In this document: positions 21,195 through 53,695 of the stretch, one piece after another
Numbering within the stretch: position 1 is the stretch's first letter
Layout of the letters: every line of letters begins with the position of its first letter
Assembly: GCF_041886205.1 (NCBI RefSeq)
Contig: NZ_CP169029.1
Origin: Escherichia coli
Lineage (GTDB): Bacteria; Pseudomonadota; Gammaproteobacteria; Enterobacterales; Enterobacteriaceae
DNA: 64,000 nt
Reading direction: 5' to 3' (one strand)
Notes under the pieces: generated by a model
Database searches by the model: none
Seen by the model: the letters and a program-made list of their open reading frames with translations, nothing else
What the model was told of the DNA's origin: nothing
Position numbers and translations under genes: made by a program

Positions 21195-21223
21195 TTCCTA
21201 CACCACTCCTTGATGAAAAAGCG

Positions 21224-28175: not shown

Positions 28176-28358
28176 AAAAAAGTGGCAAGATTATACCCCA
28201 TCAGGCATAAGATGCTTTGACTTATAACGCATCAGTTTGAAACACAATGGTGATGGGGGTCACAGGGGCTGACATGTACTTTTAAGATTAAAAAGCATTA
28301 ACATCTACTTTTGAAGAAAACAGAAAAAAACAATCACAAACCTTTAAAAACAAAAACT

Positions 28359-32135: not shown

Positions 32136-32155
32136 TAAATATTAGATATTTTTAT

Positions 32156-32194
32156 ATTAGAGGTGAGGAGATGGCGTCACCTCTAATATTTTCG
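32156..32194 (+). terminator. Intrinsic terminator after the RT-nitrilase gene
   Basis: Perfect 10-bp inverted repeat ttagaggtga/tcacctctaa followed by tatttt. Confidence 0.6.
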
Positions 32195-32428
32195 CTGATT
32201 GTATTTAGCATCAAATAATAAAGGTACAATTAATTTAAGTGACTATCATGAAAAAATTAGTTCCGCCATATCAAGTAACCCCGGCACAAATCTATCGTTC
32301 CGTTGCCAGTTCTACAGCCATTGAAACCGGAAAACCCGTGCAAGAAATTGAGCGACAGCTCAAACGTAACCGAACGCTGGCGAAGAACGTCGGCCTCGCC
32401 AGCAAATCCAGAGATCCGATTTAAGCCT

Positions 32429-33736
32429 CTATCTCTGCCCAAACAGGTTAACGACATTGTTTTCCTGCTGTTGCTGGTGGTTATTCACCCGAGACTCCCA
32501 GATCTCGAGAGCCTTACGCTTTTCAACCAGGTAATCGTAACGATCGTAGTGTTTAGAACTCACATCCTGTAGAGCATGGTTCTGAATGCGGTCACGCAGG
32601 TCTTTAGCAATACCCGCTTCGCCCATCAGGGTCTTACAGGTACGACGAATATCACGCGCAATAAAAGATGGGCTCAACGCAAAGTGTTGCCGGTAATAAA
32701 TGATGGCTTGTGCAAAGCTGTCTGTGCGTAGATGCTGTTCCGGTTTAATACGCTGCGGGAAGATGTAAGGACTCTGACTATGATTCTCAGCTTTCAACTT
32801 TTCGAGTATCTCAATGGCTGACTCAGTCAAAGGCACCAGATGATCCCTTTTATTTTTCGACACATCCGCCACTATCAATAACGTTTTTTCTTCCCAGTTA
32901 ACGGCATCCCAACGGCTGGAAACCAGTTCATGAGGCCGCTGGCCACCCGTATAGACACACAAGTTAAGCAATTGGCTGATTAACGGGCCGACCTTTGGTG
33001 CTTTAGGGAAATCCCCCATCAGTTGCTGCAACTCATCCAGCTTCAGCCAGTTTGTCCCTGCCTTCTCCGCTGCAGATTGTTTGGGTATGACACTCACTGG
33101 GTTCATTTGAAGCCCAAACATCACGTTCTGCTGGTGGTTTGCCGGATCGTTGTCAGCCTTCAACCCATAATTGAATGCTGCCATCAGATAAGAGCGAACA
33201 CGATTTGCTTCAACTGATGCGCCACGTTTAATAATGGTGGCCAGAATTTGTTTGATATGAGCGGGGATAACGTCACGCGCTTTCGTCGCTTTAGGTATAA
33301 ATGGATAGGTTTCTTTTTCCAGCCGGTACAAAACCTGTTGCCAGGTGCGTTTACCGTCTTCACGCATTTTGGTGGTGTAACCCAAAATGAGTTGCTCAAT
33401 GCTGCCTTTGAGCTGGTCTTCACGTTGTTGTTGTTCGGCAGAGAAAAGCTGCTCTGCGATTTCAGCTTTGGGGTCTTTCCCTTCTTTAAGAAGACCCGCA
33501 TGTTCTTTACATTGCTGTCTTGCCTGCGCGAGTGACAACTCTGGGAAACGGCCAAGCAGAATGAATTGCCGTTTTCCTTGCCAAAAATAACGATAGTAAA
33601 ATACTCGCTGACCCGATGGCTCAACTTTCACCCCTAATCGCCCTGCCCCACGCTCACCACTTTTATCCCATTCATAATAAGCAGTAGTCTTCGGCTTCAA
33701 GCCACTAATCATTGAGACAGTTAAATTATCAGCCAT
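32429..33736 (-). CDS. P4-type tyrosine integrase of the ileY island
   Basis: N-terminal arm-binding-like domain (MADNLTVSMISGLKPKTTAYYEWDKSG...RVFYYRYFWQGKRQ); start trimmed from ORF 33838 to ATG at 33736; adjacent to attR. Confidence 0.82.
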   Translation of the reverse strand: MADNLTVSMISGLKPKTTAYYEWDKSGERGAGRLGVKVEPSGQRVFYYRYFWQGKRQFILLGRFPELSLAQARQQCKEHAGLLKEGKDPKAEIAEQLFSAEQQQREDQLKGSIEQLILGYTTKMREDGKRTWQQVLYRLEKETYPFIPKATKARDVIPAHIKQILATIIKRGASVEANRVRSYLMAAFNYGLKADNDPANHQQNVMFGLQMNPVSVIPKQSAAEKAGTNWLKLDELQQLMGDFPKAPKVGPLISQLLNLCVYTGGQRPHELVSSRWDAVNWEEKTLLIVADVSKNKRDHLVPLTESAIEILEKLKAENHSQSPYIFPQRIKPEQHLRTDSFAQAIIYYRQHFALSPSFIARDIRRTCKTLMGEAGIAKDLRDRIQNHALQDVSSKHYDRYDYLVEKRKALEIWESRVNNHQQQQENNVVNLFGQR

Positions 33737-33758
33737 AGTATTTTTCAGTCCTTTGTTC

Positions 33759-33804
33759 GTTACGTCACCCAGTCTGATTCTGGGTGACGTAGTGGGTGAC
33801 GTAA
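33759..33804. repeat. Three GGGTGACGTA motifs (one inverted, two direct) upstream of the island integrase
   Basis: gttacgtcaccc ... tgggtgacgtagtgggtgacgtaa; same motif as 13977-14001. Confidence 0.45.
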
Positions 33805-33929
33805 GGATGATACTGAAGGTAAAAACGCAGAACAACATGAAACAACAACCAGCAAATAACCTACTGTTATTTATTAAATTTAATCTAACGTGAAAAAAGA
33901 TGCAAAATCATGAAACATGGATTTCATAT

Positions 33930-40000: not shown

Positions 40001-41597
40001 GACGCCACGGGATAATGTTACGCCAGTTAAACTCGAAGGGGCGGTCCGGATTACCGATAGCGCGACATTGACTCTGGGAAATGGCGTCGATACCACGCTT
40101 GCCGACCTGACGGCTGCCAGCCGGGGCAGTGTCTGGCTTAACAGCAATAATTCCTGTGCAGGTACCAGCAACTGCGAATATAGAGTAAACAGTTTGCTAC
40201 TCAACGACGGTGATGTTTATTTGTCAGCACAAACAGCAGCGCCTGCCACAACTAACGGTATCTACAATACGCTGACAACCAATGAACTTTCCGGTAGCGG
40301 TAATTTCTACCTGCATACCAACGTTGCAGGCTCCCGGGGCGATCAACTGGTCGTCAACAACAACGCCACTGGTAATTTTAAAATCTTTGTTCAGGATACC
40401 GGCGTCAGCCCACAGTCTGACGACGCGATGACGCTGGTGAAAACAGGGGGAGGGGATGCTTCGTTTACGCTGGGCAATACCGGCGGTTTCGTTGATCTTG
40501 GGACCTATGAGTATGTCCTGAAAAGTGACGGCAACAGCAACTGGAACCTGACCAATGATGTCAAACCCAACCCGGACCCCATCCCAAATCCAAAGCCAGA
40601 CCCAAAACCCGATCCAAAGCCAGACCCAAATCCAAAACCAGACCCTACTCCCGATCCAACGCCGACACCCGTTCCGGAGAAACGCATTACGCCTTCTACG
40701 GCAGCCGTACTCAATATGGCAGCAACATTACCGTTGGTATTTGATGCTGAGCTAAACAGTATTCGCGAGCGGTTGAACATAATGAAAGCGAGTCCACACA
40801 ACAATAATGTCTGGGGGGCGACGTATAACACCCGTAATAATGTCACCACCGATGCGGGTGCCGGGTTTGAGCAGACGCTGACCGGAATGACAGTGGGGAT
40901 CGACAGCCGTAATGATATTCCTGAAGGAATTACCACGCTAGGCGCTTTTATGGGCTATTCCCATTCACATATCGGTTTTGATCGCGGAGGACATGGCAGT
41001 GTGGGCAGTTATTCTCTGGGCGGCTATGCCAGTTGGGAACATGAAAGTGGTTTCTATCTGGACGGTGTCGTGAAGCTGAACCGTTTTAAAAGTAACGTAG
41101 CAGGTAAAATGAGCAGCGGTGGAGCCGCCAATGGCAGTTACCACAGCAACGGGCTGGGCGGTCACATTGAAACCGGGATGCGATTTACCGATGGTAACTG
41201 GAACCTGACGCCGTATGCATCGTTAACGGGGTTCACCGCTGATAACCCCGAATATCATTTATCCAATGGCATGGAATCGAAATCAGTCGATACCCGCAGT
41301 ATATATCGTGAACTGGGTGCAACGCTGAGTTACAACATGCGTCTGGGGAACGGTATGGAAGTTGAGCCGTGGCTGAAGGCGGCTGTGCGCAAAGAATTTG
41401 TCGATGATAACCGGGTGAAGGTGAATAATGACGGTAATTTCGTCAATGATTTGTCGGGCAGACGTGGAATATACCAGGCAGGTATTAAAGCCTCATTCAG
41501 TAGTACGTTAAGCGGGCATCTCGGGGTGGGGTATAGCCATGGTGCCGGTGTGGAATCACCGTGGAACGCGGTGGCTGGTGTGAACTGGTCGTTCTGA
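37008..41597 (+). CDS. ypjA: AIDA-I-type autotransporter adhesin, YpjA-like
   Basis: Signal peptide (MKFMNRTSPYYFRRSVLSLLISALIYAPPGMAAF), long repetitive GG-x-Q/T beta-helix passenger, Pro-rich linker, C-terminal beta-barrel ending ...AGVNWSF; start trimmed from ORF 36888. Confidence 0.85.
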   Translation: MKFMNRTSPYYFRRSVLSLLISALIYAPPGMAAFTTNVIGVVNDETVDGNQRVDERGTTNNTHIINHGQQSVYGGVSNGSIIESGGYQDVGRNNNYMGQSNNTTINGGRQTIHDGGISTGTIIDSGNQDVYTGGISNGTTIKGGNSHISGGTANGTIIDGGSQRVTTQGHVDSTTINKSGSQDITQGSLATNTIINGGRQYVEQSTVGTTTIKNGGEQRVYESHALDTTIEGGTQSLNNKSTAKNTQIYSGGTQIVDNTSTSDVIEVYSGGVLDVSGGTATNVTQHDGAILKTNTNGTTVNGTNSEGAFSIHNHVADNVLLENGGHLDINAYGSANKTIIKDKGTMSVLTNAKADATRIDNGGVMDVAGNATNTIINGGTQNINNYGIATGTNINSGTQNIKSGGKADTTIISSGSRQVVEKDGTATGSNISAGGSLIVYTGGIAHGVNQETGSALVANTGAGTDIEGYNKLSHFTITGGEANYVVLENTGELTVVAKTSAKNTTIDTGGKLIVQKEAKTDSTRLNNGGVLEVQDGGEAKHVEQQSGGALIASTTSGTLIEGTNSYGDAFYIRNSEAKNVVLENAGSLTVVTGSRAVDTIINANGKMDVYGKDVGTVLNSAGTQTIYASATSDKANIKGGKQTVYGLATEANIESGEQIVDGGSTEKTHINGGTQIVQNYGKAINTDIVSGLQQIMANGTAEGSIINGGSQVVNEGGLAENSVLNDGGTLDVREKGSATGIQQSSQGALVATTRATRVTGTRADGVAFSIEQGAANNILLANGGVLTVESDTSSDKTQVNMGGREIVKTKATATGTTLTGGEQIVEGVANETTINDGGIQTVSANGEAIKTKINEGGTLTVNDNGKATDIVQNSGAALQTSTANGIEISGTHQYGTFSISGNLATNMLLENGGNLLVLAGTEARDSTVGKGGAMQNLGQDSATKVNSGGQYTLGRSKDEFQALARAEDLQVAGGTAIVYAGTLADASVSGATGSLSLMTPRDNVTPVKLEGAVRITDSATLTLGNGVDTTLADLTAASRGSVWLNSNNSCAGTSNCEYRVNSLLLNDGDVYLSAQTAAPATTNGIYNTLTTNELSGSGNFYLHTNVAGSRGDQLVVNNNATGNFKIFVQDTGVSPQSDDAMTLVKTGGGDASFTLGNTGGFVDLGTYEYVLKSDGNSNWNLTNDVKPNPDPIPNPKPDPKPDPKPDPNPKPDPTPDPTPTPVPEKRITPSTAAVLNMAATLPLVFDAELNSIRERLNIMKASPHNNNVWGATYNTRNNVTTDAGAGFEQTLTGMTVGIDSRNDIPEGITTLGAFMGYSHSHIGFDRGGHGSVGSYSLGGYASWEHESGFYLDGVVKLNRFKSNVAGKMSSGGAANGSYHSNGLGGHIETGMRFTDGNWNLTPYASLTGFTADNPEYHLSNGMESKSVDTRSIYRELGATLSYNMRLGNGMEVEPWLKAAVRKEFVDDNRVKVNNDGNFVNDLSGRRGIYQAGIKASFSSTLSGHLGVGYSHGAGVESPWNAVAGVNWSF
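40561..40672 (+). repeat. Tandem short repeats encoding the (P-D/N/K-P) linker inside ypjA
   Basis: cccaaatccaaagccagacccaaaacccgatccaaagccagacccaaatccaaaaccagaccc, encoding PNPDPIPNPKPDPKPDPKPDPNPKPDPTPDPTPTP. Confidence 0.7.
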
Positions 41598-41609
41598 CCA
41601 TCAACGAAA

Positions 41610-41640
41610 AAGCCCACATCTGTGGGCTTTCATGTTACCA
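41610..41640 (+). terminator. Intrinsic terminator after ypjA
   Basis: Hairpin aaagcccacatctgtgggcttt immediately after the stop. Confidence 0.55.
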
Positions 41641-41825
41641 GGAGCCGCGGCTCTTTTGCGTATCCTGTTTTGTCTCCTCACCGTCTGGTCGGTGTCCTGC
41701 TGAGGCTGCTAACTTCCTGTTTTTGTTGGTGTTGTCCTTACACCGTCCAATCATGATTGGGCTGGCGGAGTCTGAATAACATTTGCAACATAATGTTTTT
41801 ATTGTTTATTTTCCAATTCAACTTT

Positions 41826-41854
41826 CATTGGTATACCTAAGCGTATACCAATGG
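41826..41854. repeat. Palindromic GGTATAC-containing repeat at the left end of the P4-like element
   Basis: cattggtatacctaagcgtataccaatgg; close copy of cgtatacctaaacgtataccaat at 53200-53222. Confidence 0.5.
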
Positions 41855-41932
41855 CGATTTGTTGCAATGATTCCTGTGGTTAAGCGAACTTGTTGTTGAA
41901 TAGCTCACATCAAGAAAAAAACTTTTTTTACG

Positions 41933-42034
41933 GAAAACTGTTCACACTGTTCACTCGCCATTATTTGTCTTTAATTTCAATGTGATATACGGTGAATAGT
42001 CCGTGAACAGTGAACACTTTACTGTTCACTTTCC
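41933..42034. promoter_or_regulatory. Cluster of TGTTCAC/GTGAACA octamer iterons downstream of the primase gene, P4 ori-like
   Basis: ctgttcacactgttcac ... ggtgaatagtccgtgaacagtgaacactttactgttcac; resembles P4 type I iterons bound by alpha. Confidence 0.5.
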
Positions 42035-42079
42035 GGGATTTCAGGTAAAAAAAGACCGGCTGATGCCGGTCCGGGTAGG

Positions 42080-44413
42080 TTATGTCGCGGTGGTTTCGTC
42101 GCACCGGGGCAGCCAGTCGGCGTTGCTTTCCTCCCTGAGCGCAAGGTTCGTCTGCATCCCCTGATTTGTTCGCCGCCTGGCGTAATTCAGCCCGTACTCT
42201 TTCAGCATCGATGACAGCCCTTTGCCGAACATGGTCAGGCTGAGGGTGTTCTTGTAGCCGTGCGCCTCCATGTAAACCAGATAGGCGTGATACAGGTACA
42301 GGCGCGGCTGTCGCGGGATGATATTCGCATTCCCCATGTACATACCGTCAGGCTCGGGCAGCGCCTCCAGATAGCCACAAAAATCGAATGTCGGGTCAGC
42401 GTCGCGCTTGATGCTGAGTGCCTCGTCGGAGTTCTGCTGCGACTGGAGCAGTGTGCGCGCGGTCATCGGGTCGCTGAACGTCTGCATAAGCTGACGCACG
42501 ATGACGGCCAGCTCGCGGGCAATTTTATCTTTCAGCTTCGGGTCACGCTCCTCCGGGGCAATCTGTTCCGGGAAGTGCATTATCACCCGGCGACGCGACA
42601 CGCCGCCGCTGCGGTCGGTGAAGCGCATCGGATTGTTGTTTACGGCCAGTATCACCGCCGGAATATGGGTGGAGTACGCATCGCGGTATTTCGGGTCAAC
42701 CGAGACCGCATCCCCGCCGGTGATGGCCTTGAGTCCTGCCCCGTCACCGCTCCATTTCTCCTGGTCAGGCAGACGTATCAGCGAGAAGCCAATCAGCGCC
42801 GCGCGCTCGCGGGGGGATTCCAGCGTTTCGATAGTCGCTGACGTGGCGTTATCTTCCCCGGCGAGCATGGTCGCTATTTCGGCCAGAATACTTTTCCCGC
42901 TGCCACCGGGACCGGTCACTTCGAGGAAGAGCTGCCAGTCGTAGCGGTTCGCCAGCACCATAAACAGCGCGGCGAGTATCACGTCACGTTTATCGGCACG
43001 CGAACCGGCGGCGCGGTCGAGCCAGCGCCAGAAATTCGGCGCGTGCGTCTCCAGCGTTTCCCCCTCCACCGGCGGGGTGAAATCCACGTCGCACAGGGTG
43101 CGCAGCCAGTGCGTTTTGCTGTGCGGGCTGAATATACCGGTACTGGTATCAAGCACGCCGTTGCGAAAGCCAATCAGCCGCCGTGGCGGGGCATCCTGCT
43201 GCGGAATAATCAGTTTCAGGGTGTCCACCACCGAGGCAATTTTCCCCGACGAAAACGGGGCGCGCAGACGCTGGAACAGCCCGGCCACGTCGCGCGCAAA
43301 GTCTGACGGCGGAATGATTTTCCATATACCGGCTTCATAGCGGGACAGGAGCTGCCCGTTCGCATCCACCGCCAGCGCTTCGCCGTAATGCTCATGCACC
43401 CGCATGGCTTTCTCACTGGTGCTCATGGCGGTAAATTCCGCCTCGCTCATGGTAGAGAAAGGGCTTTCAGCCGGTGGCCGGATGGCGTCATACATGGCTT
43501 TACGCGTGGCCTCCCCACCGTGCTGTGTATACGCATCATTCCAGTCACCGAACACCGGCGGCAGGGCGACCACGCCCTCACAGGACTCTGCGGCCGCAGA
43601 CGCTTTGGTCTGGCCGTCGCCGTTAAGGTCACGGTCGGCGGCAATGACAATCCGGCAGGCCGGGTATTTGTGACGGGCAAGGCTCGCCAGAGAAAGGAGG
43701 TTCACCGACGACAGCGCCACCATGACGGTTTCGCCGGTCAGGTGATGCACGGTGAGCGCGGTCGCGTAGCCCTCCGCTATCCACAGCCGTTTTCCCGCCT
43801 CTTTTTTCCCGTCGAGAATATGACATGTCCCTTTTACCTGCCCCCCTTTCAGGGTGCGCTTGAGACCGTCCGCGTTAATGAGCTGGACGTTAACCAGTGC
43901 GCCGCTATCGTCATACAGCGGGACAACCACATCCCCGGCACGGTACGTCACACCGCCGGTTTTGTGCATGGCCGTCAGTACCTGACATTCCCGGCCGGGA
44001 AAGCCCTTGCGGGTGAGGTAGGCGTTGCCGGTGGCCGGTTGGGTTTTCTCCATCAGTCTGGCGGCCAGCGCGGCCGCCGCTTTGCGGTCGGCCTCCGTTT
44101 CAGCGTCTGCGGCCGCAGTCACCGCCGGGGATACCGGAGGCAGGTTGCCGGTCACGGCGTTCACCTTCCCGGCCGCCTCTGACGGGGTCACGCCGAACAC
44201 TTTCTCAACCAGTTTCAGACCGTCCCCCGCGCCGCACTGGTTACAGAACCACGTCCCGCGTCCCTCCTTATCGTCAAAGCGAAAGCGGTCGGAGCCGCCA
44301 CACACCGGACAGGCCTGATGACGGTTTTTGATGACCGTTACCCCCAGCGCCGGGAGAATGCGCGGCCAGTGGCCGCACGCCTGTTTCACGGTGTCCGTTA
44401 CGTTCATTTTCAT
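42080..44413 (-). CDS. P4 alpha-type primase-helicase
   Basis: 777 aa; N-terminal zinc-binding primase region CPVCGGSDRFRFDDKEGRGTWFCNQCG; Walker A-like GPGGSGKS. Confidence 0.85.
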   Translation of the reverse strand: MKMNVTDTVKQACGHWPRILPALGVTVIKNRHQACPVCGGSDRFRFDDKEGRGTWFCNQCGAGDGLKLVEKVFGVTPSEAAGKVNAVTGNLPPVSPAVTAAADAETEADRKAAAALAARLMEKTQPATGNAYLTRKGFPGRECQVLTAMHKTGGVTYRAGDVVVPLYDDSGALVNVQLINADGLKRTLKGGQVKGTCHILDGKKEAGKRLWIAEGYATALTVHHLTGETVMVALSSVNLLSLASLARHKYPACRIVIAADRDLNGDGQTKASAAAESCEGVVALPPVFGDWNDAYTQHGGEATRKAMYDAIRPPAESPFSTMSEAEFTAMSTSEKAMRVHEHYGEALAVDANGQLLSRYEAGIWKIIPPSDFARDVAGLFQRLRAPFSSGKIASVVDTLKLIIPQQDAPPRRLIGFRNGVLDTSTGIFSPHSKTHWLRTLCDVDFTPPVEGETLETHAPNFWRWLDRAAGSRADKRDVILAALFMVLANRYDWQLFLEVTGPGGSGKSILAEIATMLAGEDNATSATIETLESPRERAALIGFSLIRLPDQEKWSGDGAGLKAITGGDAVSVDPKYRDAYSTHIPAVILAVNNNPMRFTDRSGGVSRRRVIMHFPEQIAPEERDPKLKDKIARELAVIVRQLMQTFSDPMTARTLLQSQQNSDEALSIKRDADPTFDFCGYLEALPEPDGMYMGNANIIPRQPRLYLYHAYLVYMEAHGYKNTLSLTMFGKGLSSMLKEYGLNYARRRTNQGMQTNLALREESNADWLPRCDETTAT

Positions 44414-44424
44414 GGTGTTCTCCC

Positions 44425-44745
44425 TCAGTGCAGCGCCGGTGCGGTGATATGACGGGCGCAGAGTTCATCCATCACGGCCAGCCCGAGAAAGGACAGCGAC
44501 GGCGCGGCCTTGAGTGGTCCGGCTTCCATTAAATCTTCGAGCAGGGCACAGGCAATCTGACGGCCTTTTTCCTCGCCATGCTGGCGCAGGTAGAAGCCCT
44601 CCAGCTCGGTCGCAATGGCGCTTTCCAGCGTACTGAGCGTGAGCTGCGGGTAGCGGTGCTGACGTTCGCACAGGGTCAGCCATGCACAGGCCACGGCGCG
44701 GCGATAGAGCGCGGCGCGTAAGACGGGCGTTAATGGCTTTTTCAT
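44425..44745 (-). CDS. Hypothetical protein, 106 aa (same size and position as P4 orf106)
   Basis: ORF immediately upstream of the primase, start overlapping the upstream ORF stop. Confidence 0.45.
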
Positions 44746-45047
44746 ACGTTGCGCTCCCCGGCCAGCCAGCGCTGATTGCAGCGTTCGACCACACCTTCAA
44801 GCCGGGCGGTCATGAGGTAAATCACCGAGGTGAGCTGTAGCTGCTGCGCCGGATTGTGGCGCAAAGAGGTGCAGTCCTGCACCTGCATCAGTTCGCCGAC
44901 GAGCTGGCCGACGTTGCGAAGATGTTCGAGGCATTCGAGGTCTGCCCGGCTGATGGTGGGCTGGTTTATATTCTGCGACCGTTCCGTACTGTTAACAGGC
45001 ATTATTTCGTCTCCTGAGGACGTGCGTATCCCTGCGCAGATACGCAC
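44742..45047 (-). CDS. Hypothetical P4-like small protein, 101 aa
   Basis: Translationally coupled to neighbouring ORFs in the primase-upstream cluster. Confidence 0.45.
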
Positions 45048-45073
45048 ATTTTATTTTGGGGTGTCGTTTTTAA

Positions 45074-45523
45074 TTACAGATAACGGCGGTAGCTGTTATC
45101 CGGTTTTATTTCCGTTTCCAGCCTGAAATTATTCCGCCATTTATGCGCCACCGGCGCCGGGCGTTTAACCGGGGGAATATCATCAGGATAGTTATCGATA
45201 TTCCGCGCCCGGTATTGCTGTAATGCCGGGTCGGCCGCTATTTCGCGTAATACGGCGTGGCGGTTTTCAGGGTTGCGCTTAAATACATCGGGATGCTCAC
45301 AGGTAAAGTCCCGCAAAAAACGACTGAGCGGAATTTCTGCCATACGGCCACCGGCAATAATACGAATGAGGATGGTGTAGGTGCGCCGGTAAGGGTTCCA
45401 GACCAGCCCCGGACAGCGGTACGGCATATCCCACGGAATACCGTCGGCCAGCACGCCCGACACCACCACATCAGGAAATCCTGTACAGCGATATGTTTCG
45501 CCCGGCTGAGGGAAATCAAACAT
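45074..45523 (-). CDS. Hypothetical P4-like protein, about 149 aa
   Basis: ORF 45074-45565 trimmed to ATG at 45523, which overlaps the stop of the upstream small gene. Confidence 0.4.
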   Translation of the reverse strand: MFDFPQPGETYRCTGFPDVVVSGVLADGIPWDMPYRCPGLVWNPYRRTYTILIRIIAGGRMAEIPLSRFLRDFTCEHPDVFKRNPENRHAVLREIAADPALQQYRARNIDNYPDDIPPVKRPAPVAHKWRNNFRLETEIKPDNSYRRYL

Positions 45524-45815
45524 GGTGCTCCCCTCCGTTTCCCGACGTCGTGGCGAGAAAGTCACGGCACAGGCCTTTGGCTTTCAGCTCTTCCAGGACG
45601 TAGCTGACGTCCTCATGGATATAACTAAAAATCTGCGGCAGGTATAGCTGGTGTAAACCGTTCAGCTCACGGCGCAGCAAATCTCCACCGATGAACTGCG
45701 AGACGGCGCTGGCGCGATTGAGTTTATGGTACGCCTCAATGCTGAGGTGTTCCTGCATGGGGTTAAGGTCATCACGACGCGCTGAGATGGTCTGAGGGGT
45801 GTTTTTATTATGCAT
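45516..45815 (-). CDS. Hypothetical small protein, 99 aa
   Basis: ATG at 45815 preceded by a GGAGG RBS; the N-terminal part of the longer listed ORF is low-complexity and probably not translated. Confidence 0.4.
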
Positions 45816-46403
45816 GTGACACCTCCACAACCGGCAGACGGGCGGCAAGGGAAAGCACGTATTCCCGGACAAGGGTGCGGCGGGCGGCCAGCTCGTCACC
45901 GGCCACGGTGCGGAGCATACAGATACGGGGTTTACGGTCTGCACGACGGACGGCGGCAAACACAAAGACAAACTGAGGGTGTGACGGGGTGAGGGTCGTA
46001 GCCATAAGGCAACCTCCTTCGAGTAGCAAATTATTGCTATCGCCGGAGTTCTCACGCTCAGTGGCGATAGCCCAGACGGGGGTGAGAATACCGGCCTCGA
46101 AGAATACCGGCCAGCCCGAGGGCTGCCCCGCCTGAGCTACCATTGACATGACAGCATGATATGCGATTGCGGACAGGAGACACAAAGTGACGTCTGCACG
46201 ACGATCCGCACACCACGCCATTATCTGGCGCTCTGTGGCGTTAGTTGCGACACAAAAAAAGACGCATGGCGCGTCTGGTGTCGCCTTCGAGTTACTCGGG
46301 TTCTCACGCCCGGTTACCGATTTTGCGGCAACAGCAAAACTGTACCAGGAAACACACAACGGATGCAAGCCAGAAAAAGGGGCTTTGTGAAATCGGCTCT
46401 GAT

Positions 46404-46622
46404 TCATGCGTCGTATTTCCGGTTGCGGTGCGCGACACGTTCTTCCATCCATGCCGTGATTTCAGACTGTAGCCAGGCGACATTTTTACCCCCGAGGGAA
46501 ACCTGCGCCGGGAAAGCGTTACGGGCGATTAAATCGTAGAGCGTGGAGCGGGACAGGCCGCACTGATGAATGACTTCCGGGAGACGTAAAAAACGTTCCT
46601 GAGTCGGGGCTGAAACCGGCAT
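46404..46622 (-). CDS. alpA: AlpA-family transcriptional regulator of the P4-like element
   Basis: [49 protein letters not shown] matches the AlpA HTH family; start trimmed to MPVSAP. Confidence 0.7.
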
Positions 46623-46944
46623 CGGGTGCGCGGCAGTGGGGGACGGTGGTGCTGATGAAACTGTGTGCATAACGCTACCTCGTTAATATCCGCAGAGATC
46701 CGGACGTATCCGTCCGGTATCAGGTAGCGCTCTATTTTGTGAATATTTTTCTTCAATGCAACAGAGGCATGTTGTGTCGTGGAGCAGTTTTGTCTGTTAT
46801 TTAAGCAGCGACCTGAAAATATGAAAAATAATTGGCACATGACGCGCTGAGACGTTCATAAATCACAGTCAATTGATATCGCCTATCAATAGATAAAAAT
46901 ATAATTATTAAAACAATGACTCTCTAAAAGGAGCTTGCCGAAAC

Positions 46945-47050
46945 CAGTGAACAGTAGTGAACAGTTGGTGAACACTTTTCTCTCAACTGTTCACTCTTTA
47001 ATTTATTGTTTTATTTATATTTTTATACTGAGTGAACAGTAGTGAATAGT
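46945..47050. promoter_or_regulatory. Second TGAACAGT iteron cluster, P4 crr-like
   Basis: cagtgaacagtagtgaacagttggtgaacac ... caactgttcac ... gagtgaacagtagtgaatagt, about 5 kb from the ori-like cluster. Confidence 0.5.
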
Positions 47051-47218
47051 TATATGTAAAAAAACAAATAGAGTGAGGGGTTTTCCTGCGACCTTTCTCT
47101 GGCCAGCCGGGTTTTTAAGTCCTGTTTGTGCCATGTCTGCGACAACGGCAATGAATCGAGTTGTTGTCTGAGGGACGGCAGAATGGCGTCAGGTTGAAAA
47201 CACAGAGAGAACCCGACG

Positions 47219-48022
47219 ATGAAACCAGATTTGTTTACCGCAGTAATGAAAACCATCGGCAGCACGCAGGATGAGAACATCCGCACGGCCATTGACAGCG
47301 CACTGGATACCCTTAACGAGAAAGCAAACCAGAACGCAGAGGCCACGATAAATAATGCGCTTGAGGCATTCAGCAAGGCCAAATCCGCGCACACGGAAAA
47401 TATGCTGAAACTGAATGATATTGATGCGGCCATTACCCGCAGTGAGAAAGAGCGTCAGAACGCCCTGAATGAAAGTGCCGAAGCGGAACAGAACTGGCGT
47501 ACCCGTTTTCGCGAACTGCGCGGCATGATGACCCCGGAACTGAAAGCCGAACACAGTCAGCGAGTGGCCGGTCGGGAGCTGGCGGAGGAATTCACCGCCC
47601 TGATTGATGAGCTCAACGATGATAAAGCCAGTACCATGCTGGCCGCCTGTACATCAGGAGATAAGTACGTCGGCACGCATTTTACGGTGTTCTCTGCCTA
47701 CTCCCGGAATGAGTGGGCGACCGTGATGAAAGACATCCCTCCCTCACTGGTGCGCGCATTTGCGTTACGTCTGCGTGAACTCGAAATGAAAGGAGAAGAA
47801 CACCCTCACAACGTTCTCATTCAGGAACTGGGGGAGAATGTACTGGCGCAAAGCAGGTACTACACATTCAACATGGCGCAGGAGCCGGTAATTTCAAAAA
47901 TTGGGCTTCACCGTCCGGCACTCACCGGCGTGGATATGAAACTCTATAAAAGCCCGGTTCTCAGAATGGCGCGGGCTAAAGAGCTGGCACAGAAGAAAAA
48001 ATCGCGGGGGGTTAAGCCATGA
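47219..48022 (+). CDS. Possible Sid-like capsid size determination protein
   Basis: 267-aa alpha-helical protein immediately upstream of the Delta and Psu homologs, in the P4 sid-delta-psu order. Confidence 0.4.
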   Translation: MKPDLFTAVMKTIGSTQDENIRTAIDSALDTLNEKANQNAEATINNALEAFSKAKSAHTENMLKLNDIDAAITRSEKERQNALNESAEAEQNWRTRFRELRGMMTPELKAEHSQRVAGRELAEEFTALIDELNDDKASTMLAACTSGDKYVGTHFTVFSAYSRNEWATVMKDIPPSLVRAFALRLRELEMKGEEHPHNVLIQELGENVLAQSRYYTFNMAQEPVISKIGLHRPALTGVDMKLYKSPVLRMARAKELAQKKKSRGVKP

Positions 48023-48261
48023 TGCGCTGTCCGTACTGCAAACAGGCTGCCCATGTCCGTACCAGCCGTTACCTGTCGGATAACGTCAAACAGAGCTACC
48101 TCCAGTGCGTGAATGTCTTTTGCTCCGCAACCTTTCGCACCACCGAGTCTATCGACGAGGTAATACGGCCACCGGCAGAAGAAAAGCCCGAACCGCCGCA
48201 GACAGTACCAGAAACACCGCCCCGAATTCTGGACTGCGCCCGGTCATCGCTGCGCCACTGA
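48019..48261 (+). CDS. Ogr/Delta-family zinc-finger late transcription activator
   Basis: CPYCKQAAHVRTSRYLSDNVKQSYLQCVNVFCSATF matches the Ogr/Delta C-x2-C...C-x4-C pattern. Confidence 0.8.
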   Translation: MMRCPYCKQAAHVRTSRYLSDNVKQSYLQCVNVFCSATFRTTESIDEVIRPPAEEKPEPPQTVPETPPRILDCARSSLRH

Positions 48262-48277
48262 TTCAGGAGAAAAGACA

Positions 48278-48853
48278 ATGGCACGAGCACTACTGGAACA
48301 GGCCTTTGAAACCTGTCAGAAGAATAAATCGGACTGGGTGAGCAGCAAGTCAGCACTGGCGCGGGCTGAAATGGCGCTGAAAGAGCTGGAGCTGACCTGC
48401 ACCCGTTATGAACCGGAGGCCGCACAGGCGCTGCGGGATGATATTGACCTGAAAAAATGGGCGGTAAATCAGTCGGCCGGGCAGTACATCCGGTCACATG
48501 AGGCCGTGCAGCGTATCAGTATCCGGCGTCAGCTCCACGCCTTTATGCAGGTAAGCGGCGACGCGCTGGCCGCCGCACTGGCACCGGAATTAATGCATCT
48601 CTGCGAACAACCTGACATTGTCAGAGAACGGGCTCTCGACCGGGCGGCCGCCAGTGTTCGCGAAGCGCTGTCCGTTTATGTAACCCGCGGAGGAAATATT
48701 GATTACGCAGAGGATGATCGCGACATTCTGACAACCATCGGTTTCCGGCCTGACAGAGCATCGAGAGACGACAACCGGGCAAAATATACGCCTGAACAGA
48801 GTCAGATTTTCATGCGCCGACAGGCCGCGCAGACCCGCAAAAAATCCGCATAA
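48278..48853 (+). CDS. Psu-like polarity suppression protein
   Basis: 191 aa; remembered Psu-like motifs (KKWAVNQSAGQYIRSHEAVQ, AAALAPELM, DILTTIGFRPD); position after delta. Confidence 0.6.
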   Translation: MARALLEQAFETCQKNKSDWVSSKSALARAEMALKELELTCTRYEPEAAQALRDDIDLKKWAVNQSAGQYIRSHEAVQRISIRRQLHAFMQVSGDALAAALAPELMHLCEQPDIVRERALDRAAASVREALSVYVTRGGNIDYAEDDRDILTTIGFRPDRASRDDNRAKYTPEQSQIFMRRQAAQTRKKSA

Positions 48854-49113
48854 AACGCCCCGAAAATACCCGTCTTTTTAATAAAAATAGCCATGCATGC
48901 CTACGCTGCATGGCTTTGCATGCAAAAACCTGAATTTTCCACACCCCGCCGCACCAGCACTGGCGCGGCCTGAGTCCCTTCATGCGCCTGCATTAAAAGT
49001 GCCCCACGAAGCGGGCAGGCGTGGCGGGGAGAGCATTGCGCGCCAAGCGATATATAATTAATTAATGAAGAAGGATAGAATTAACCATATAGCCATAAAA
49101 AAGGATGCGGGTG

Positions 49114-50685
49114 ATGAAGGCGAGTGATATGCAGCACTTATGTAATATAGCCAGAGAGCTTGTTTCTGATGGCAAGTTTGAAAAGGCGTATGAGTTCACG
49201 TTGCAGATTTATAAATCCCTTGACGAAAATATCTTTGGGGATAATTACTATATACTTCTTTATAATATGGCTGCGAATTTTGTTGATATAGGAGGAATGC
49301 AACCGAATAAAGAGGCTTCTCTGCTAGGCTATAACTTAATGAATGAGCACTTTGACTCTTTTTCTAAAATTATGGATGAATCTACGCTCTATTATAACCT
49401 AGCAAACGCAAAGTCAAACTTGGTTGAAAAAGGCAGTGTTTTTAAACAAACGTTTACAACAATTGAGGATATGGTGGATGTAAAAAATTTATACTGGAAG
49501 GCATTTAAATTACTCGGTGATGATAATACTATATATAGCAAAGAACTGAAGGTCAATTTAGCAAACTCACTCAAGCAACAGTTTAGAGTTGTAGAGTCTA
49601 TTTCATATTATGATGATGTTATTTCCTCGGGGGAAGATATACCGCAAGCATGGATTAACAGGTCTGAAGCCTTAATGCTATTGCTGCAACTCTCTGGTTC
49701 TCATACTATAAAGCATATAAGAGAGATTAGACTTGGATATATGAAAGCAATTGAATCAACAGAGATGCCACCGCCATGGAAACCACACTTTCAATCACGT
49801 GCTGAAAAACTCACGGAAGATATAATCGAAATGTCGGGAAAACCATTTTTTGAAAAAGAAGATGAGCTTGATGAAAAACAGACGCTAGAAGAATATAGCA
49901 AACTTAATAATTATCAAAAATTCGTTTTAGATAACCACTTTGTTCTTTCTGAGCATGGGGTGTATTGTCCTTGCGTAGTTGGGGCTAAAGATAACCTAAC
50001 AATATTACCAACACATAATGATGTTTCTGGTGATTTTATTATTCCCATGGAAATGGTTTTGAATAGGCTAAAGTCTGAATATGCTTTGGCAAGGCGCTCG
50101 TTATTCGAGTATGAGTACATGGAGGAAGTTGATGATGTGGCCTGTTATTCAGAGTTGTATAACGATGAAGTTTTAAATGTTGGTGTTGAGAAGATAAGAA
50201 ATGCATTTCGTATATGTTTTGGTGTGTTAGATAAAATAGCTATTGCAATATGTGAGTTATACGATGTTTATCCAGCCAATAAAATAGTGTACTTTGAAAA
50301 TTTTTGGCAATTAAACCAAAATGGGCGAAGGGATAAGTTTGAAGAAATAAAAACTCCAGCTTTACTGGCTTTATATAGTCTAGCTACTGACCTAAATGAT
50401 AGAAAGAATGGTGAATTATCCTTTTATAAGGATTGGAGAAATGATTTGGAACATAATATAGTGATCGTTCATAAAGATTGCGAGCCTTTAGATATATATA
50501 ATTCCTACGGTTACATGAAGAATATTAGGTTGATATCGGAGTCTGATTTTACTAGACATTTTAAAGTGTTATTGCAAATAGTACGCTCAGCAATTTTTCT
50601 TTTTACCTTTATGGTAAGAGAAGAGGGGGGTAAAAGTAACAAGGATTCATTTTTGATATCAAACTCACTAGATTGGAAAATATGA
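49114..50685 (+). CDS. Hotspot cargo: TPR-like N-terminus plus C-terminal HEPN-like domain, candidate abortive-infection protein
   Basis: AT-rich 523-aa ORF; TPR-like helical repeats; R-x4-H motif in WRNDLEHNIV; start trimmed from ORF 49105 for RBS spacing. Confidence 0.55.
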   Translation: MKASDMQHLCNIARELVSDGKFEKAYEFTLQIYKSLDENIFGDNYYILLYNMAANFVDIGGMQPNKEASLLGYNLMNEHFDSFSKIMDESTLYYNLANAKSNLVEKGSVFKQTFTTIEDMVDVKNLYWKAFKLLGDDNTIYSKELKVNLANSLKQQFRVVESISYYDDVISSGEDIPQAWINRSEALMLLLQLSGSHTIKHIREIRLGYMKAIESTEMPPPWKPHFQSRAEKLTEDIIEMSGKPFFEKEDELDEKQTLEEYSKLNNYQKFVLDNHFVLSEHGVYCPCVVGAKDNLTILPTHNDVSGDFIIPMEMVLNRLKSEYALARRSLFEYEYMEEVDDVACYSELYNDEVLNVGVEKIRNAFRICFGVLDKIAIAICELYDVYPANKIVYFENFWQLNQNGRRDKFEEIKTPALLALYSLATDLNDRKNGELSFYKDWRNDLEHNIVIVHKDCEPLDIYNSYGYMKNIRLISESDFTRHFKVLLQIVRSAIFLFTFMVREEGGKSNKDSFLISNSLDWKI

Positions 50686-50814
50686 AAACATTACGTTGCA
50701 AGTATATCTTGTATTCGTTCAACTTTGACCTGACACACCTCTGGCACAAAGCCCCAATCTCATAGGCGGTTCTATGCCAGGGGCTGAAAGTCTGTCTCTG
50801 GTAACATACACTTA

Positions 50815-51801
50815 TTATGTTATATTGAGGAAATCTGGGATATTAGCTGGTTCAAGGTCAAAAATATATTTAATGATTCCGGCTTTTAGGTTCTCCTCAA
50901 TTCCTTTCCTGAAATCTAGAATACTTGAGATTGTTGCATCATGTTGTAAATGATGTCGCCAGTGAACATCTTTTTCTCGACTATGAAAAGATAACAATCG
51001 GGTTAGAGCCATATGTGCGAACATTCCTGATTGTTCATCGATTGTATAATGGGCAACCACGTGGGAATCAGAATATGATTCTTTCGTAGAAAGATCCCAA
51101 GAATGAAATAATTGCTGAGCAATTGGTGATAGATCCCTTATTTGTTCATTTCTTCCGTTAGTGAAGTAAACATCATCTATGACGGTATGCCAGTTTTCTT
51201 GTGTCCCTTCATCTGTTTCAATGGTTTCAATAATATTTTCTTTCTTGAAACTTATATGAACACCTGAATTAACTTGTGGAGTGTAGGTGAAGTCACCTAA
51301 AACTTTACTCATTAAGCTATTACGCATTGCATCATTGAAATTAAGATTGAAATTTGTTTTTGCCTTTGTAAATAAATCTAGATCTACCAGGCTCCAAATT
51401 CCATGTCTTCTCCAGGCAATTAAAACGGGCAGCCCTAATAATTGGCCGTAAGCTCTTAATCTGGACACGTAATCTGGACGAAAAGACAAAACATTTCCCA
51501 TGTAAGATTTAACTTCAATCAAAACAGTAGTCTTGCCTGCGCCACGCACATTAAAATTTGCTAGTAAATCTGGAACCTGAAAAGTCTTGTTAGAAGTAGT
51601 TGGATACTGCTGTTGATCCAATTTATGGACTAGGTTGCATTGACCTAGCCAACCACAGATAATCGAAAACTCGTCTTCTAACGGGAGGCCAATATTAAGT
51701 CTATTTACACGTTCAGCGATAGCCTTAGCGTCAGCCTCCCAACCCAGTTGCTCTAGAGATTCATGTATAAGTCTCTCTAAATCTGTCGGCTTATCTTTCA
51801 A
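50815..51801 (-). CDS. Hotspot cargo: putative PD-(D/E)xK-fold nuclease-like protein (328 aa)
   Basis: AT-rich ORF convergent with the HEPN-like gene; N-terminal motif FQVPDLL...VLIEVKS. Confidence 0.55.
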   Translation of the reverse strand: MKDKPTDLERLIHESLEQLGWEADAKAIAERVNRLNIGLPLEDEFSIICGWLGQCNLVHKLDQQQYPTTSNKTFQVPDLLANFNVRGAGKTTVLIEVKSYMGNVLSFRPDYVSRLRAYGQLLGLPVLIAWRRHGIWSLVDLDLFTKAKTNFNLNFNDAMRNSLMSKVLGDFTYTPQVNSGVHISFKKENIIETIETDEGTQENWHTVIDDVYFTNGRNEQIRDLSPIAQQLFHSWDLSTKESYSDSHVVAHYTIDEQSGMFAHMALTRLLSFHSREKDVHWRHHLQHDATISSILDFRKGIEENLKAGIIKYIFDLEPANIPDFLNIT

Positions 51802-51960
51802 GGTAGCTCCCTATAGGTTTAGTTCGAACTCAATAAGTTATATGTCATTAACATATTACAAAGTTATGCCATTATCGCTTAAAGCCGATCATCATGTAAG
51901 AATACATTATATCCGTGGCAACGGTTAGTGCTAATTCACAGATATACTGAGCAAAAATTT

Positions 51961-53148
51961 TTAATGATTTACTTTATCTCCCCACCAATCCATCAACTCA
52001 ACTCTTTGAAGTAAATAAGTTGAACGGTTGTAAGCTTTTCGAACTTCATTTTTGTCTGAGTGTGCTAATGCTGCTTCAATAACATCAGAATTAAATCCGG
52101 CTTCATTGAGTGCAGTACTTGCGATGGACCGTAACCCGTGAGCAACTAATTTCCCACCATAACCAATACGCTTAAGTGCGGCATTAGCAGTCTGACTATT
52201 CATTGGTTGCTTAGGGTTATTTCTGCTGGGAAAAACATGTTCACGGTGAGCGCTGATTGGTTTCATCACTTCCAGAATATCTAACGCCTGAGGAGATAGT
52301 GGGACTATGTGCTCACGCTTAGCTTTCATCCGTTCGGCAGGAATTGTCCAGAGCTTTGCATCAAGATCGATCTCTGCCCACCGGGTACTGGAAGCCTCAG
52401 AAGGGCGCACAAGGGTCAGGAGTTGCCATTCGATTAGACAGCGAGTCGGAACAGACAGATTTGACATGACTAAAGAACGCATCAGCTTCGGCAATTCTTC
52501 TGGCCGCAACGTCGGCATGTTTTGCTTTTTGGGCTTCTCAAAGGCCATGCCAACACCGGATGCTGGATTGGCATCAATCAGACCAGTGTTTACGGCATAA
52601 ATCATGATTTCGTTAATGCGCTGCACCAGTCGACGTACAGTCTCAAGCGCCCCACGTGCTTTTATTGGCTCAAGGGCTTCAACCAAAGTTCGGGCTTTGA
52701 TTTGCTGAACGGGGATCTCACCGATGGCAGGGAATACATCTTTCTCCAGTGAACGCCAAATGTCTTTTGCGTAATCAGGGGTAACGCTTTTGCTTTTGAG
52801 ATGGAACCAGTTAGCGGCGACCGTTGAAAAAATACTGTCCAGAGCGATTTGCTGCTGTTCCTCTGCAACTTCGGCCTGAATTTGCGGGTCAATTCCGTTG
52901 GCTAACAAGGCAAGGTAATCCGCTCTTAACCCTCGGGCGTCAGCAAGTGAGAGGGCGGGGAAAGCACCTAGCCCCATCATTGTCCGCTGTTTTGTCGCCG
53001 GACGTTGATAACGGAAACGCCAGAGCTTTTTCCCGCTGGTTTTCACTATCAGGAAAAGGCCATCGCCATCATGCAGCGTTAGATCCTTCTCTAACGCTTT
53101 AGCGCGCAGAACTTCGGTGTTGGTCAGGGGGCGTGTTGTCCGTGCCAC
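51961..53148 (-). CDS. intA: P4-type tyrosine integrase, IntA (CP4-57)-like
   Basis: MARTTRPLTNTEVLRAKALEKDLTLHDGDGLFLIVKTSGKKLWRFRYQRP... resembles the IntA N-terminus; located immediately 3' of ssrA. Confidence 0.88.
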   Translation of the reverse strand: MARTTRPLTNTEVLRAKALEKDLTLHDGDGLFLIVKTSGKKLWRFRYQRPATKQRTMMGLGAFPALSLADARGLRADYLALLANGIDPQIQAEVAEEQQQIALDSIFSTVAANWFHLKSKSVTPDYAKDIWRSLEKDVFPAIGEIPVQQIKARTLVEALEPIKARGALETVRRLVQRINEIMIYAVNTGLIDANPASGVGMAFEKPKKQNMPTLRPEELPKLMRSLVMSNLSVPTRCLIEWQLLTLVRPSEASSTRWAEIDLDAKLWTIPAERMKAKREHIVPLSPQALDILEVMKPISAHREHVFPSRNNPKQPMNSQTANAALKRIGYGGKLVAHGLRSIASTALNEAGFNSDVIEAALAHSDKNEVRKAYNRSTYLLQRVELMDWWGDKVNH

Positions 53149-53166
53149 TGTGGCCGCTCCTTCATG

Positions 53167-53226
53167 AATTGGTATACGCTTTTAGGTATACATCCTACCG
53201 TATACCTAAACGTATACCAATAATCA
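53167..53226. repeat. GGTATAC-rich repeats between the integrase start and ssrA, probable integrase binding or attachment region
   Basis: aattggtatacgcttttaggtatacatcctaccgtatacctaaacgtataccaataatc; matches the repeat at 41826-41854. Confidence 0.5.
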
Positions 53227-53332
53227 CCGGATTTAGCCGGATGTTCTCGGACAACTACAGACACAAAAAAGCCCGCAGAGCTTGTGCTATACGGGCTTTC
53301 TGTACTTCACCGGACGTATCCGGATCATCATT

Positions 53333-53695
53333 TGGTGGAGCTGGCGGGAGTTGAACCCGCGTCCGAAATTCCTACGTCCTCGGTACTACATGCTTAGTCA
53401 GTCTTTACATTCGCTTGCCAGCTGCGGACGGACACGCCACTAACAAACTAGCCTGATTAAGTTTTAACGCTTCAACCCCAGGCAGGGCTTCCACGCGATC
53501 TCTTTTGGGTTTGACCTCTCTTGATCCCCGTCCTAAGAGCGGAGGCTAGGGAGAGAGGGCTCTAAGCAGGTTATTAAGCTGCTAAAGCGTAGTTTTCGTC
53601 GTTTGCGACTATTTTTTGCGGCTTTTTACGAGGCCAACCGCCCCTCGGCATGCACCTTGGGTTTCGCAAATCCCGTCGAATCCAGAATCAGCCCC
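53333..53695 (-). ncRNA. ssrA: tmRNA (SsrA)
   Basis: Reverse complement reads GGGGCTGATTCTGGATTCGACGGGATTTGCGAAACCC ... GGTTCAACTCCCGCCAGCTCCACCA, matching E. coli ssrA over its length. Confidence 0.95.

Follow-up and report, generated by a model that had tools for sequence, protein, structure and literature searches.

Two iteron clusters of a P4-like satellite prophage in Escherichia coli and their very probable correspondence to crr and ori1

The 64,000-nucleotide (nt) stretch of Escherichia coli DNA considered here (contig NZ_CP169029.1 of assembly GCF_041886205.1; hereafter the window) carries a satellite prophage related to bacteriophage P4, and two clusters of the short repeat TGTTCAC lie within it. 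These clusters are very probably the cis replication region (crr, 41913-42035) and the replication origin (ori1, 46946-47050) of a P4-like satellite that is intact and occupies the ssrA site. An earlier note, made from the sequence alone, had placed the clusters at 41933-42034 and 46945-47050, the one downstream of a primase gene and the other upstream of a sid-like gene, and had likened them to P4 ori and crr, in an element that probably keeps the capacity for autonomous replication. Its coordinates and gene context are correct. The comparison with P4 that it proposed has now been run and supports this reading; on alignment to the P4 record X51522 the motifs are related to the P4 type I iterons and the two clusters are positional and sequence orthologues of the two alpha-binding regions of P4. 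Which cluster is which had been left unsaid. The one near the alpha gene corresponds to crr and the one near sid to the origin, an assignment made because register, orientation, spacing and position agree in the alignment to P4.

Repeat clusters and their alignment to P4

The heptamer TGTTCAC is present in 23 copies on the two strands of the window. Dinucleotide shuffles (n = 100) gave 9.1 copies on average and 15 at most, and none of them (0/100) reached the observed count. The clustering described in the earlier note is real, and it goes beyond chance. Ten of the exact copies fall in two clusters of ~95 nt, with starts at 41939 and 41948 (+), 42003 and 42010 (-) and 42023 (+) in cluster 1, and at 46947, 46957 and 46968 (-), 46988 (+) and 47032 (-) in cluster 2. 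Each cluster also has a copy with one mismatch, GGTGAATA at 41991-41998 and GTGAATAG at 47042-47049, respectively. The Poisson probability of at least five heptamers in a 100-nt span at the shuffled rate is ~5e-12, or ~6e-9 after correction for all positions. The clusters are ~4.9 kilobases (kb) apart, as in P4.

The repeat unit is 10 nt long, with the sequence ACTGTTCACY, and a scan for this unit combined with reading of the sequence yields six repeats per cluster. The octamer given in the earlier note, ACTGTTCA, belongs to this same unit, but it is two bases off the octamer annotated in P4, TGTTCACC. It occurs nine times in the window against 2.35 expected, and eight of the nine copies are inside the two clusters. 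The remaining 13 copies of TGTTCAC are considered background, since they are dispersed and none has the conserved AC 5′ flank. Scattered copies such as the three at 1934-2563 were considered as a third cluster and rejected; the AC flank is absent.

In P4, crr (X51522, 4291-4590; X05623) consists of two direct repeats of 120 base pairs (bp) situated directly past the alpha terminator, each with five annotated type-1 repeats in the order + + - - +. Cluster 1 is found in the same location. The alpha stop codon (42080), the terminator (42053-42072), the iterons (41937-42030) and an att-side arm repeat (41831-41852) follow one another, in agreement with the place of P4 crr between alpha with its terminator and attP, and the t-alpha hairpin separates alpha from crr in both elements. 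The type-1 repeats have the order + + - - +, all annotated repeats align in register, and their offsets (0/9/52/70/84 nt) are the same in the two elements; in both, the unit starts with an A/T-tract palindrome. The window differs from P4 in having a full iteron at 42002-42011 where the P4 repeat is degenerate, and a T as the eighth base of three crr repeats. The palindrome, an A(5-7)/T(7) sequence represented by AAAAAAACTTTTTTT, stands at the outer edge of every crr unit; it is found in the window at 41914-41930 (A7/T7), in P4 and in most relatives.

Cluster 2 lies between alpA (46404-46670, -) and sid (47219-48022, +), just as P4 ori1 lies between the ORF88 (vis/alpA) side and sid. The origin in the P4 record contains six type-1 repeats in the order - - - + - - (9310-9413), which likewise lie upstream of sid. 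The order is the same in the window for the repeats that read TGTTCACC/GGTGAACA in P4, and the spacings, 10/11/21/43/10 nt compared with 10/11/22/43/10 nt in P4, differ by no more than 1 nt. Five of the six repeats have an exact heptamer core. Also shared are an A+T-rich spacer between iterons 4 and 5, which is likely the unwinding region by analogy with P4 (46996-47030), and an A7-CAAA tract kept past the last iteron. Differences from P4 ori1 are a T in place of C as the eighth base in five of the six repeats, one core mismatch in iteron 6 and a left flank that is unalignable over ~130 nt. A swapped assignment, with cluster 1 as ori and cluster 2 as crr, is ruled out by the alignments. Coordinates of the repeats, together with those of the other features of the element, are collected in Table 1.

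Table 1. Iterons of the two clusters and other features of the satellite prophage (window positions; P4 sequences in brackets)
Feature	Position	Strand	Basis or comparison
crr orthologue, single ~120-bp unit with six alpha-type iterons	41913..42035	.	aligned with both P4 crr 120-bp repeats
crr iteron 1, ACTGTTCACA	41937..41946	+	sequence reading, P4 alignment, unit scan
crr iteron 2, ACTGTTCACT (P4: ACTGTTCACC)	41946..41955	+	sequence reading, P4 alignment, unit scan
crr iteron 3, degenerate, + strand GGTGAATAGT	41991..42000	-	same degenerate GGTGAATA is an annotated type-1 repeat in P4
extra full iteron, + strand CGTGAACAGT	42002..42011	-	P4 has only degenerate GGTGAAGG here; 3-nt overlap with next iteron
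crr iteron 4, + strand AGTGAACACT (P4: GGTGAACAGT)	42009..42018	-	sequence reading, P4 alignment, unit scan
crr iteron 5, ACTGTTCACT (P4: ATTGTTCACC)	42021..42030	+	sequence reading, P4 alignment, unit scan
alpha intrinsic terminator (t-alpha homologue), GGACCGGCATCAGCCGGTCT then T-run	42053..42072	-	aligned with annotated P4 t-alpha
ori1 orthologue, six iterons around A+T-rich spacer	46946..47050	.	aligned with P4 rep_origin type-1 repeats 9310-9413
ori iteron 1, + strand AGTGAACAGT (P4: GGTGAACAGT)	46946..46955	-	sequence reading, P4 alignment, unit scan
ori iteron 2, AGTGAACAGT (P4: GGTGAACAGA)	46956..46965	-	sequence reading, P4 alignment, unit scan
ori iteron 3, GGTGAACACT (P4: GGTGAACAGT)	46967..46976	-	sequence reading, P4 alignment, unit scan
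ori iteron 4, ACTGTTCACT (P4: ATTGTTCACC)	46986..46995	+	sequence reading, P4 alignment, unit scan
A+T-rich spacer, 89% A+T (window average 53%)	46996..47030	.	homologous P4 stretch also A+T-rich
ori iteron 5, AGTGAACAGT (P4: GGTGAACAGA)	47031..47040	-	sequence reading, P4 alignment, unit scan
ori iteron 6, one mismatch, AGTGAATAGT (P4: GGTGAACAGT)	47041..47050	-	GTGAATAG form common in relatives
alpha: primase, SF3 helicase, origin-binding protein, 777 amino acids (aa)	42080..44413	-	84% identity to P4 alpha over 775 aa, no gaps
cnr (ORF106, DUF5375)	44425..44745	-	89% identity to P4 ORF106; Pfam DUF5375
CI immunity RNA (Rfam C4 antisense RNA)	46060..46147	-	74.4 bits, gathering score 45
AlpA/Vis-type regulator (P4 ORF88 counterpart), left of ori	46404..46670	-	Pfam Phage_AlpA
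sid-like capsid size determination gene, right of ori	47219..48022	+	28% identity to P4 Sid, E = 1e-23
delta, single Ogr/Delta zinc-finger domain, 80 aa	48019..48261	+	Pfam Ogr_Delta
psu	48278..48853	+	Pfam Psu, E = 3e-69
cos site GGCGTGGCGGGGAGAGCAT (P4: GGCGAGGCGGGGAAAGCAC)	49018..49036	.	16/19 bases identical to P4 cos
tyrosine integrase adjoining ssrA, not of P4 int type	51961..53148	-	Pfam Phage_integrase, Phage_int_M, Arm-DNA-bind_3
ssrA (transfer-messenger RNA, tmRNA), integration target	53333..53695	-	

Several features weigh against the identification of the clusters as crr and ori1. There is a single 120-bp crr unit in the window, compared with two separated by 60 bp in P4. Type-2 decamers, which in P4 are present as three copies of CCACTTAAAG ~110-140 nt to the left of ori, or an equivalent of them, were not found within 260 nt on the left side of the window ori. 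Each cluster contains one degenerate iteron (TATTCAC); these degenerate forms are, however, shared by P4 and by relatives. Eight of the 11 orthologous iterons show a C-to-T change at the eighth base relative to P4, and the window iterons might be recognised less well by P4 alpha itself.

With respect to the type-2 position, many relatives (among L003-L082) have about three tandem decamers ~110-140 nt to the alpha side of the ori iterons. The decamer sequence varies by element: it is CACTTAAAG in P4 (L001, 9176-9205), and TGGCAAACR, TTGGCCNTTA, GCACATCCTC or GGTGTCGAAT in others. Because the sequence differs from element to element, type-2 decamers are not a conserved defining part of the origin; a different protein, specific to each element, could have a hypervariable binding site at this position. 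The window is without decamers at 46700-46945 and has instead a small palindrome, TCAATTGATA/TATCAATAGA, at 46869-46893. A recurrence of the P4 decamer or of the window TCAATTGATA palindrome near the att sites, as a Vis-binding signal, was looked for and found no support.

The architecture of cluster 2 is shared with iteron-type plasmid and phage origins generally, which have multiple initiator-binding repeats of ~10 bp at helical-turn spacing and an adjoining A+T-rich stretch. The P4 type differs in that the initiator is itself a primase and helicase, and that the repeats are found in both orientations. It also differs in requiring a distant second iteron cluster, crr, in cis.

Conservation among relatives and the proposed replication mechanism

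Relatives were collected as 80 IMG/VR loci from a scan with the alpha protein, at 83-98% identity, and were aligned as 74 unique ori and 60 unique crr sequences. Nearly all loci of sufficient length have one cluster 50-140 nt past the alpha stop codon and another upstream of alpha. The upstream cluster is at a distance of 1.6-1.75 kb in most loci, and of 2.3-2.6 kb in P4, the window and a few others that have extra genes. Column entropy in ori is 0.08 bits for iteron cores and 0.52 bits for spacers; in crr the corresponding values are 0.13 and 0.84 bits (Mann-Whitney p ~1e-8 for core versus spacer). That core entropy is so far below spacer entropy indicates, at the level of sequence comparison, that purifying selection acts on the repeats as such. 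Among complete E. coli genomes, a match to crr plus the alpha 3′ end is present in 1482 of 5426, and only 53 match at 80% identity or higher; the type found in the window is thus uncommon.

The number of crr units was determined for the 70 related loci with enough downstream sequence. One unit is found in 28 loci and two units in 32. The relatives fall into two classes, described further below. In the P4 class, 32 loci have two units, 17 have one and 5 have lost crr; in the class that includes the window, 11 have one unit, none has two and 5 have lost crr. One-unit forms make up 11/11 of the intact crr regions in the window's class and 17/49 in the P4 class. A single crr unit is frequent enough among relatives to be regarded as a normal natural state. 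Flensburg and Calendar reportedly found in 1987 that one crr unit is enough in P4. The relatives in which crr is lost or badly degraded and full-length alpha is kept (L007, L021, L040, L042, L043, L061, L062, L069, L076 and L078) have unrelated sequence right past the alpha terminator, and these ten elements may be replication-defective.

At the protein level, alpha of the window is a single polypeptide with a Zn-ribbon and Toprim primase, a superfamily 3 (SF3) helicase and a C-terminal winged-helix origin-binding domain, like P4 alpha, for which a make-up of primase, SF3 helicase and C-terminal winged-helix DNA-binding domain has been described (PMC2777425). Pfam domains Zn_Ribbon_Prim, Toprim_3, D5_N, DUF5906 and Pox_D5 are detected. 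Residues 671-770 match PDB 1KA8, the solved C-terminal origin-binding domain of P4 alpha, with E = 1.7e-44. The requirements for P4-type autonomous replication that can be recognised in silico, i.e. crr, ori1, full-length alpha and cnr, are all present.

In P4, the type-1 repeats of both ori and crr are bound by alpha. Replication, for which crr is needed in cis, is initiated at ori1 and runs in both directions. Cnr is a copy-number regulator that acts on alpha and limits copy number through it. A mechanism for the window element can be taken from homology with P4. The element would first excise from the chromosome. Alpha would then bind the ~10-nt ACTGTTCACY iterons of ori and crr via its C-terminal winged-helix domain, bring the two regions together and open the 89% A+T spacer inside ori, and with its own helicase and primase it would start bidirectional theta replication. 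Cnr would modulate alpha binding and hence copy number. As all components of the P4 mechanism are intact here, we infer that the element would replicate in P4-like fashion once excised; the individual steps of binding, looping, unwinding and initiation are likewise proposed by analogy.

A different possibility is that the clusters are true ori/crr orthologues, but of a domesticated or defective prophage that has no autonomous replication, and that they persist as conserved relics. Many P4-like prophages are decayed, 10 of the 70 related loci have lost crr and kept alpha, and close E. coli relatives carry an IS100 insertion; the one crr unit and the missing type-2 repeats of the window also fit such a history. 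Decay is nevertheless unlikely here. All genes for replication and hijacking are uninterrupted and of full length, the element has cos and the arm repeats of both att sides, its iteron cores are undamaged and are subject to purifying selection family-wide, and a single-unit crr is the norm in this lineage.

Less probable still is that the repeats are mainly transcriptional operators, through which alpha or another protein would regulate divergent late promoters by ori, or alpha read-through at crr. The locations are compatible with this, as cluster 2 is intergenic between the divergent alpA/vis-side and sid-side transcription units and cluster 1 is directly past the alpha terminator. The orthologous P4 regions, however, are annotated as a replication origin and a cis-required replication region, and the presence of the same repeat at two places ~4.9 kb apart, one of them with an A+T-rich spacer, is typical iteron-origin architecture. 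Moreover, the repeats are tracked by the alpha DNA-binding domain and by no separate regulator gene. Finally, an artefact of chance or composition, conceivable for a motif so short and with 13 background copies in the window, can be set aside given the Poisson value of ~6e-9, the failure of any of the 100 shuffles to reach the observed count, the base-by-base orthology to P4 and the conservation in ~80 relatives. The reading of the clusters as crr and ori1 of an intact satellite is retained.

The eighth iteron base and the alpha DNA-binding domain

The eighth-base difference between this element and P4 (TGTTCACT as against TGTTCACC) extends to the relatives. In the P4 class (56 loci), 11 of the 12 iteron slots in ori plus crr have C as the eighth base (TGTTCACC). 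Slot 1 of crr has mostly A at this position in both classes. In the window's class (23 loci), T is found at ori slots 2, 5 and 6 and at crr slots 2, 5 and 6. The sub-lineage of the window itself has T also at ori slots 1 and 4, for eight slots in all.

The two classes are defined by the origin-binding domain of alpha, in which 11 substitutions are fixed: Q687D/E, T688A/P, N/S689D/E, K/N705L/Q, N718H, V723A/T, K727T, L731K, I/M/V735A/S/T, H748R and K750N. An AlphaFold2 model of the alpha C-terminal domain, made from a 12-sequence alignment, is of low confidence (mean predicted local distance difference test score, pLDDT, 46.5) and serves for rough helix and strand placement only. Residues 731-739 are in the last helix of this low-confidence model and residues 748 and 750 are at the tip of the next hairpin. 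It is usually with these two parts, the last helix and the hairpin tip, that a winged helix contacts DNA. Several class substitutions are thus predicted, on the model, to be situated at the recognition helix and wing tip.

These correspondences suggest that the alpha initiator and its sites co-vary. A caution is that the window's class is a single clade, and the co-variation counts as one evolutionary event. Two relatives, L012 and L020, are apparent recombinants, in which a window-type alpha DNA-binding domain and a T-type crr are found together with a P4-type (C-type) ori. If L012 and L020 are functional, position 8 is not an absolute discriminator, because a window-type alpha meets a P4-type ori in these elements. 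A tentative proposal from the sequence comparisons, and one with the odds rather against it, is that the window's class is a subgroup of P4-like satellites with a replicon specificity of its own, whose initiator and sites changed together. If the base preference is indeed altered, P4-like satellites would comprise two or more alpha/iteron groups, orthogonal either fully or in part, and several satellites could share one genome without replication cross-talk.

The surrounding satellite at ssrA

Searched against phage records with blastn, positions 41000-48000 of the window match P4 (X51522/NC_001609) with 78% identity over 69%. The element spans ~41772-53332, or ~11.6 kb, with the left junction approximate, and a degenerate copy of the ssrA 3′ end is present at ~41754-41771. 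The flanking chromosome is that of E. coli, with 99.9% identity (smpB, grpE, recN and others), and the ypjA/ehaD autotransporter gene is on the other flank.

The P4-like satellite family has been defined by a core of seven: int, psu, delta, sid, alpA, epsilon and alpha (PMC8628076). All seven are present here in conserved order, with an epsilon-type derepression protein as the epsilon component, together with the CI RNA and cos; the element also has an Ash-family region. The island is a complete P4-like satellite at ssrA. It resembles the P4-like satellites of Enterobacterales (Moura de Sousa & Rocha, PMC8628076) in its size of ~11.6 kb and in a cargo hotspot between cos/psu and int, and differs from P4 in having an ssrA-specific integrase, where that of P4 is of the tRNA-Leu type. 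Divergence from P4 is uneven between modules: Sid has 28% identity, alpha and cnr have 84-89%, and delta is 80 aa long compared with 166 aa in P4. In the immunity region, a match to the Hfq-binding small RNA isrK (Rfam, 68 bits) at 46255-46332 (-) adjoins the CI/C4 RNA.

A 22-nt repeat, GTATACCTAARCGTATACCAAT, is found near both ends of the element (41831-41852 and 53200-53221), with an inverted partial copy near int (53170-53190). These repeats are probably integrase arm-type binding sites. Between ypjA and the left end of the satellite, the segment 41608-41769 shows 84-86% identity to lambdoid phage regions, one of which is annotated 'tmRNA pseudogene', and it is probably a relic of earlier ssrA integrations.

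The cos-to-int hotspot contains a gene for a 526-aa protein with a C-terminal HEPN_LA2681 domain (49105-50685, +) and one for a 328-aa protein without a Pfam match (50815-51801, -). A PADLOC scan of these two cargo genes gave no matches. A relative at the same ssrA site has a SIR2 protein and an ATP-binding protein in the place of the cargo. It is possible that the two genes represent an uncharacterised defence pair. A separate defence-type island is present at 17914-33838 of the window, with McrBC (17914-21194) and a type I restriction-modification system hsdR/S/M (21224-28175), followed by a reverse-transcriptase-domain protein of 1274 aa (28311-32135) and by a tyrosine integrase (32429-33838).

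Clusters such as these two are ordinary and well understood; particular to this lineage is a slight change in the repeat sequence. The results as a whole refine, by a small increment, a system that is already well understood. A large survey of P4-like satellites makes no mention of iterons or crr (PMC8628076). As far as has been found, the conservation of iteron cores in ~80 elements, the one- and two-unit forms of crr, and the iteron C-to-T shift that tracks a variant alpha DNA-binding domain are new. Judged by its gene and site content, the ssrA-inserted island is a complete and probably replication-competent P4-like satellite, which matters for annotation of the island and for the prediction that a P2-like helper can mobilise it with its cargo genes. 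The C-to-T shift offers a simple testable handle on replicon specificity and on possible incompatibility among co-resident satellites.

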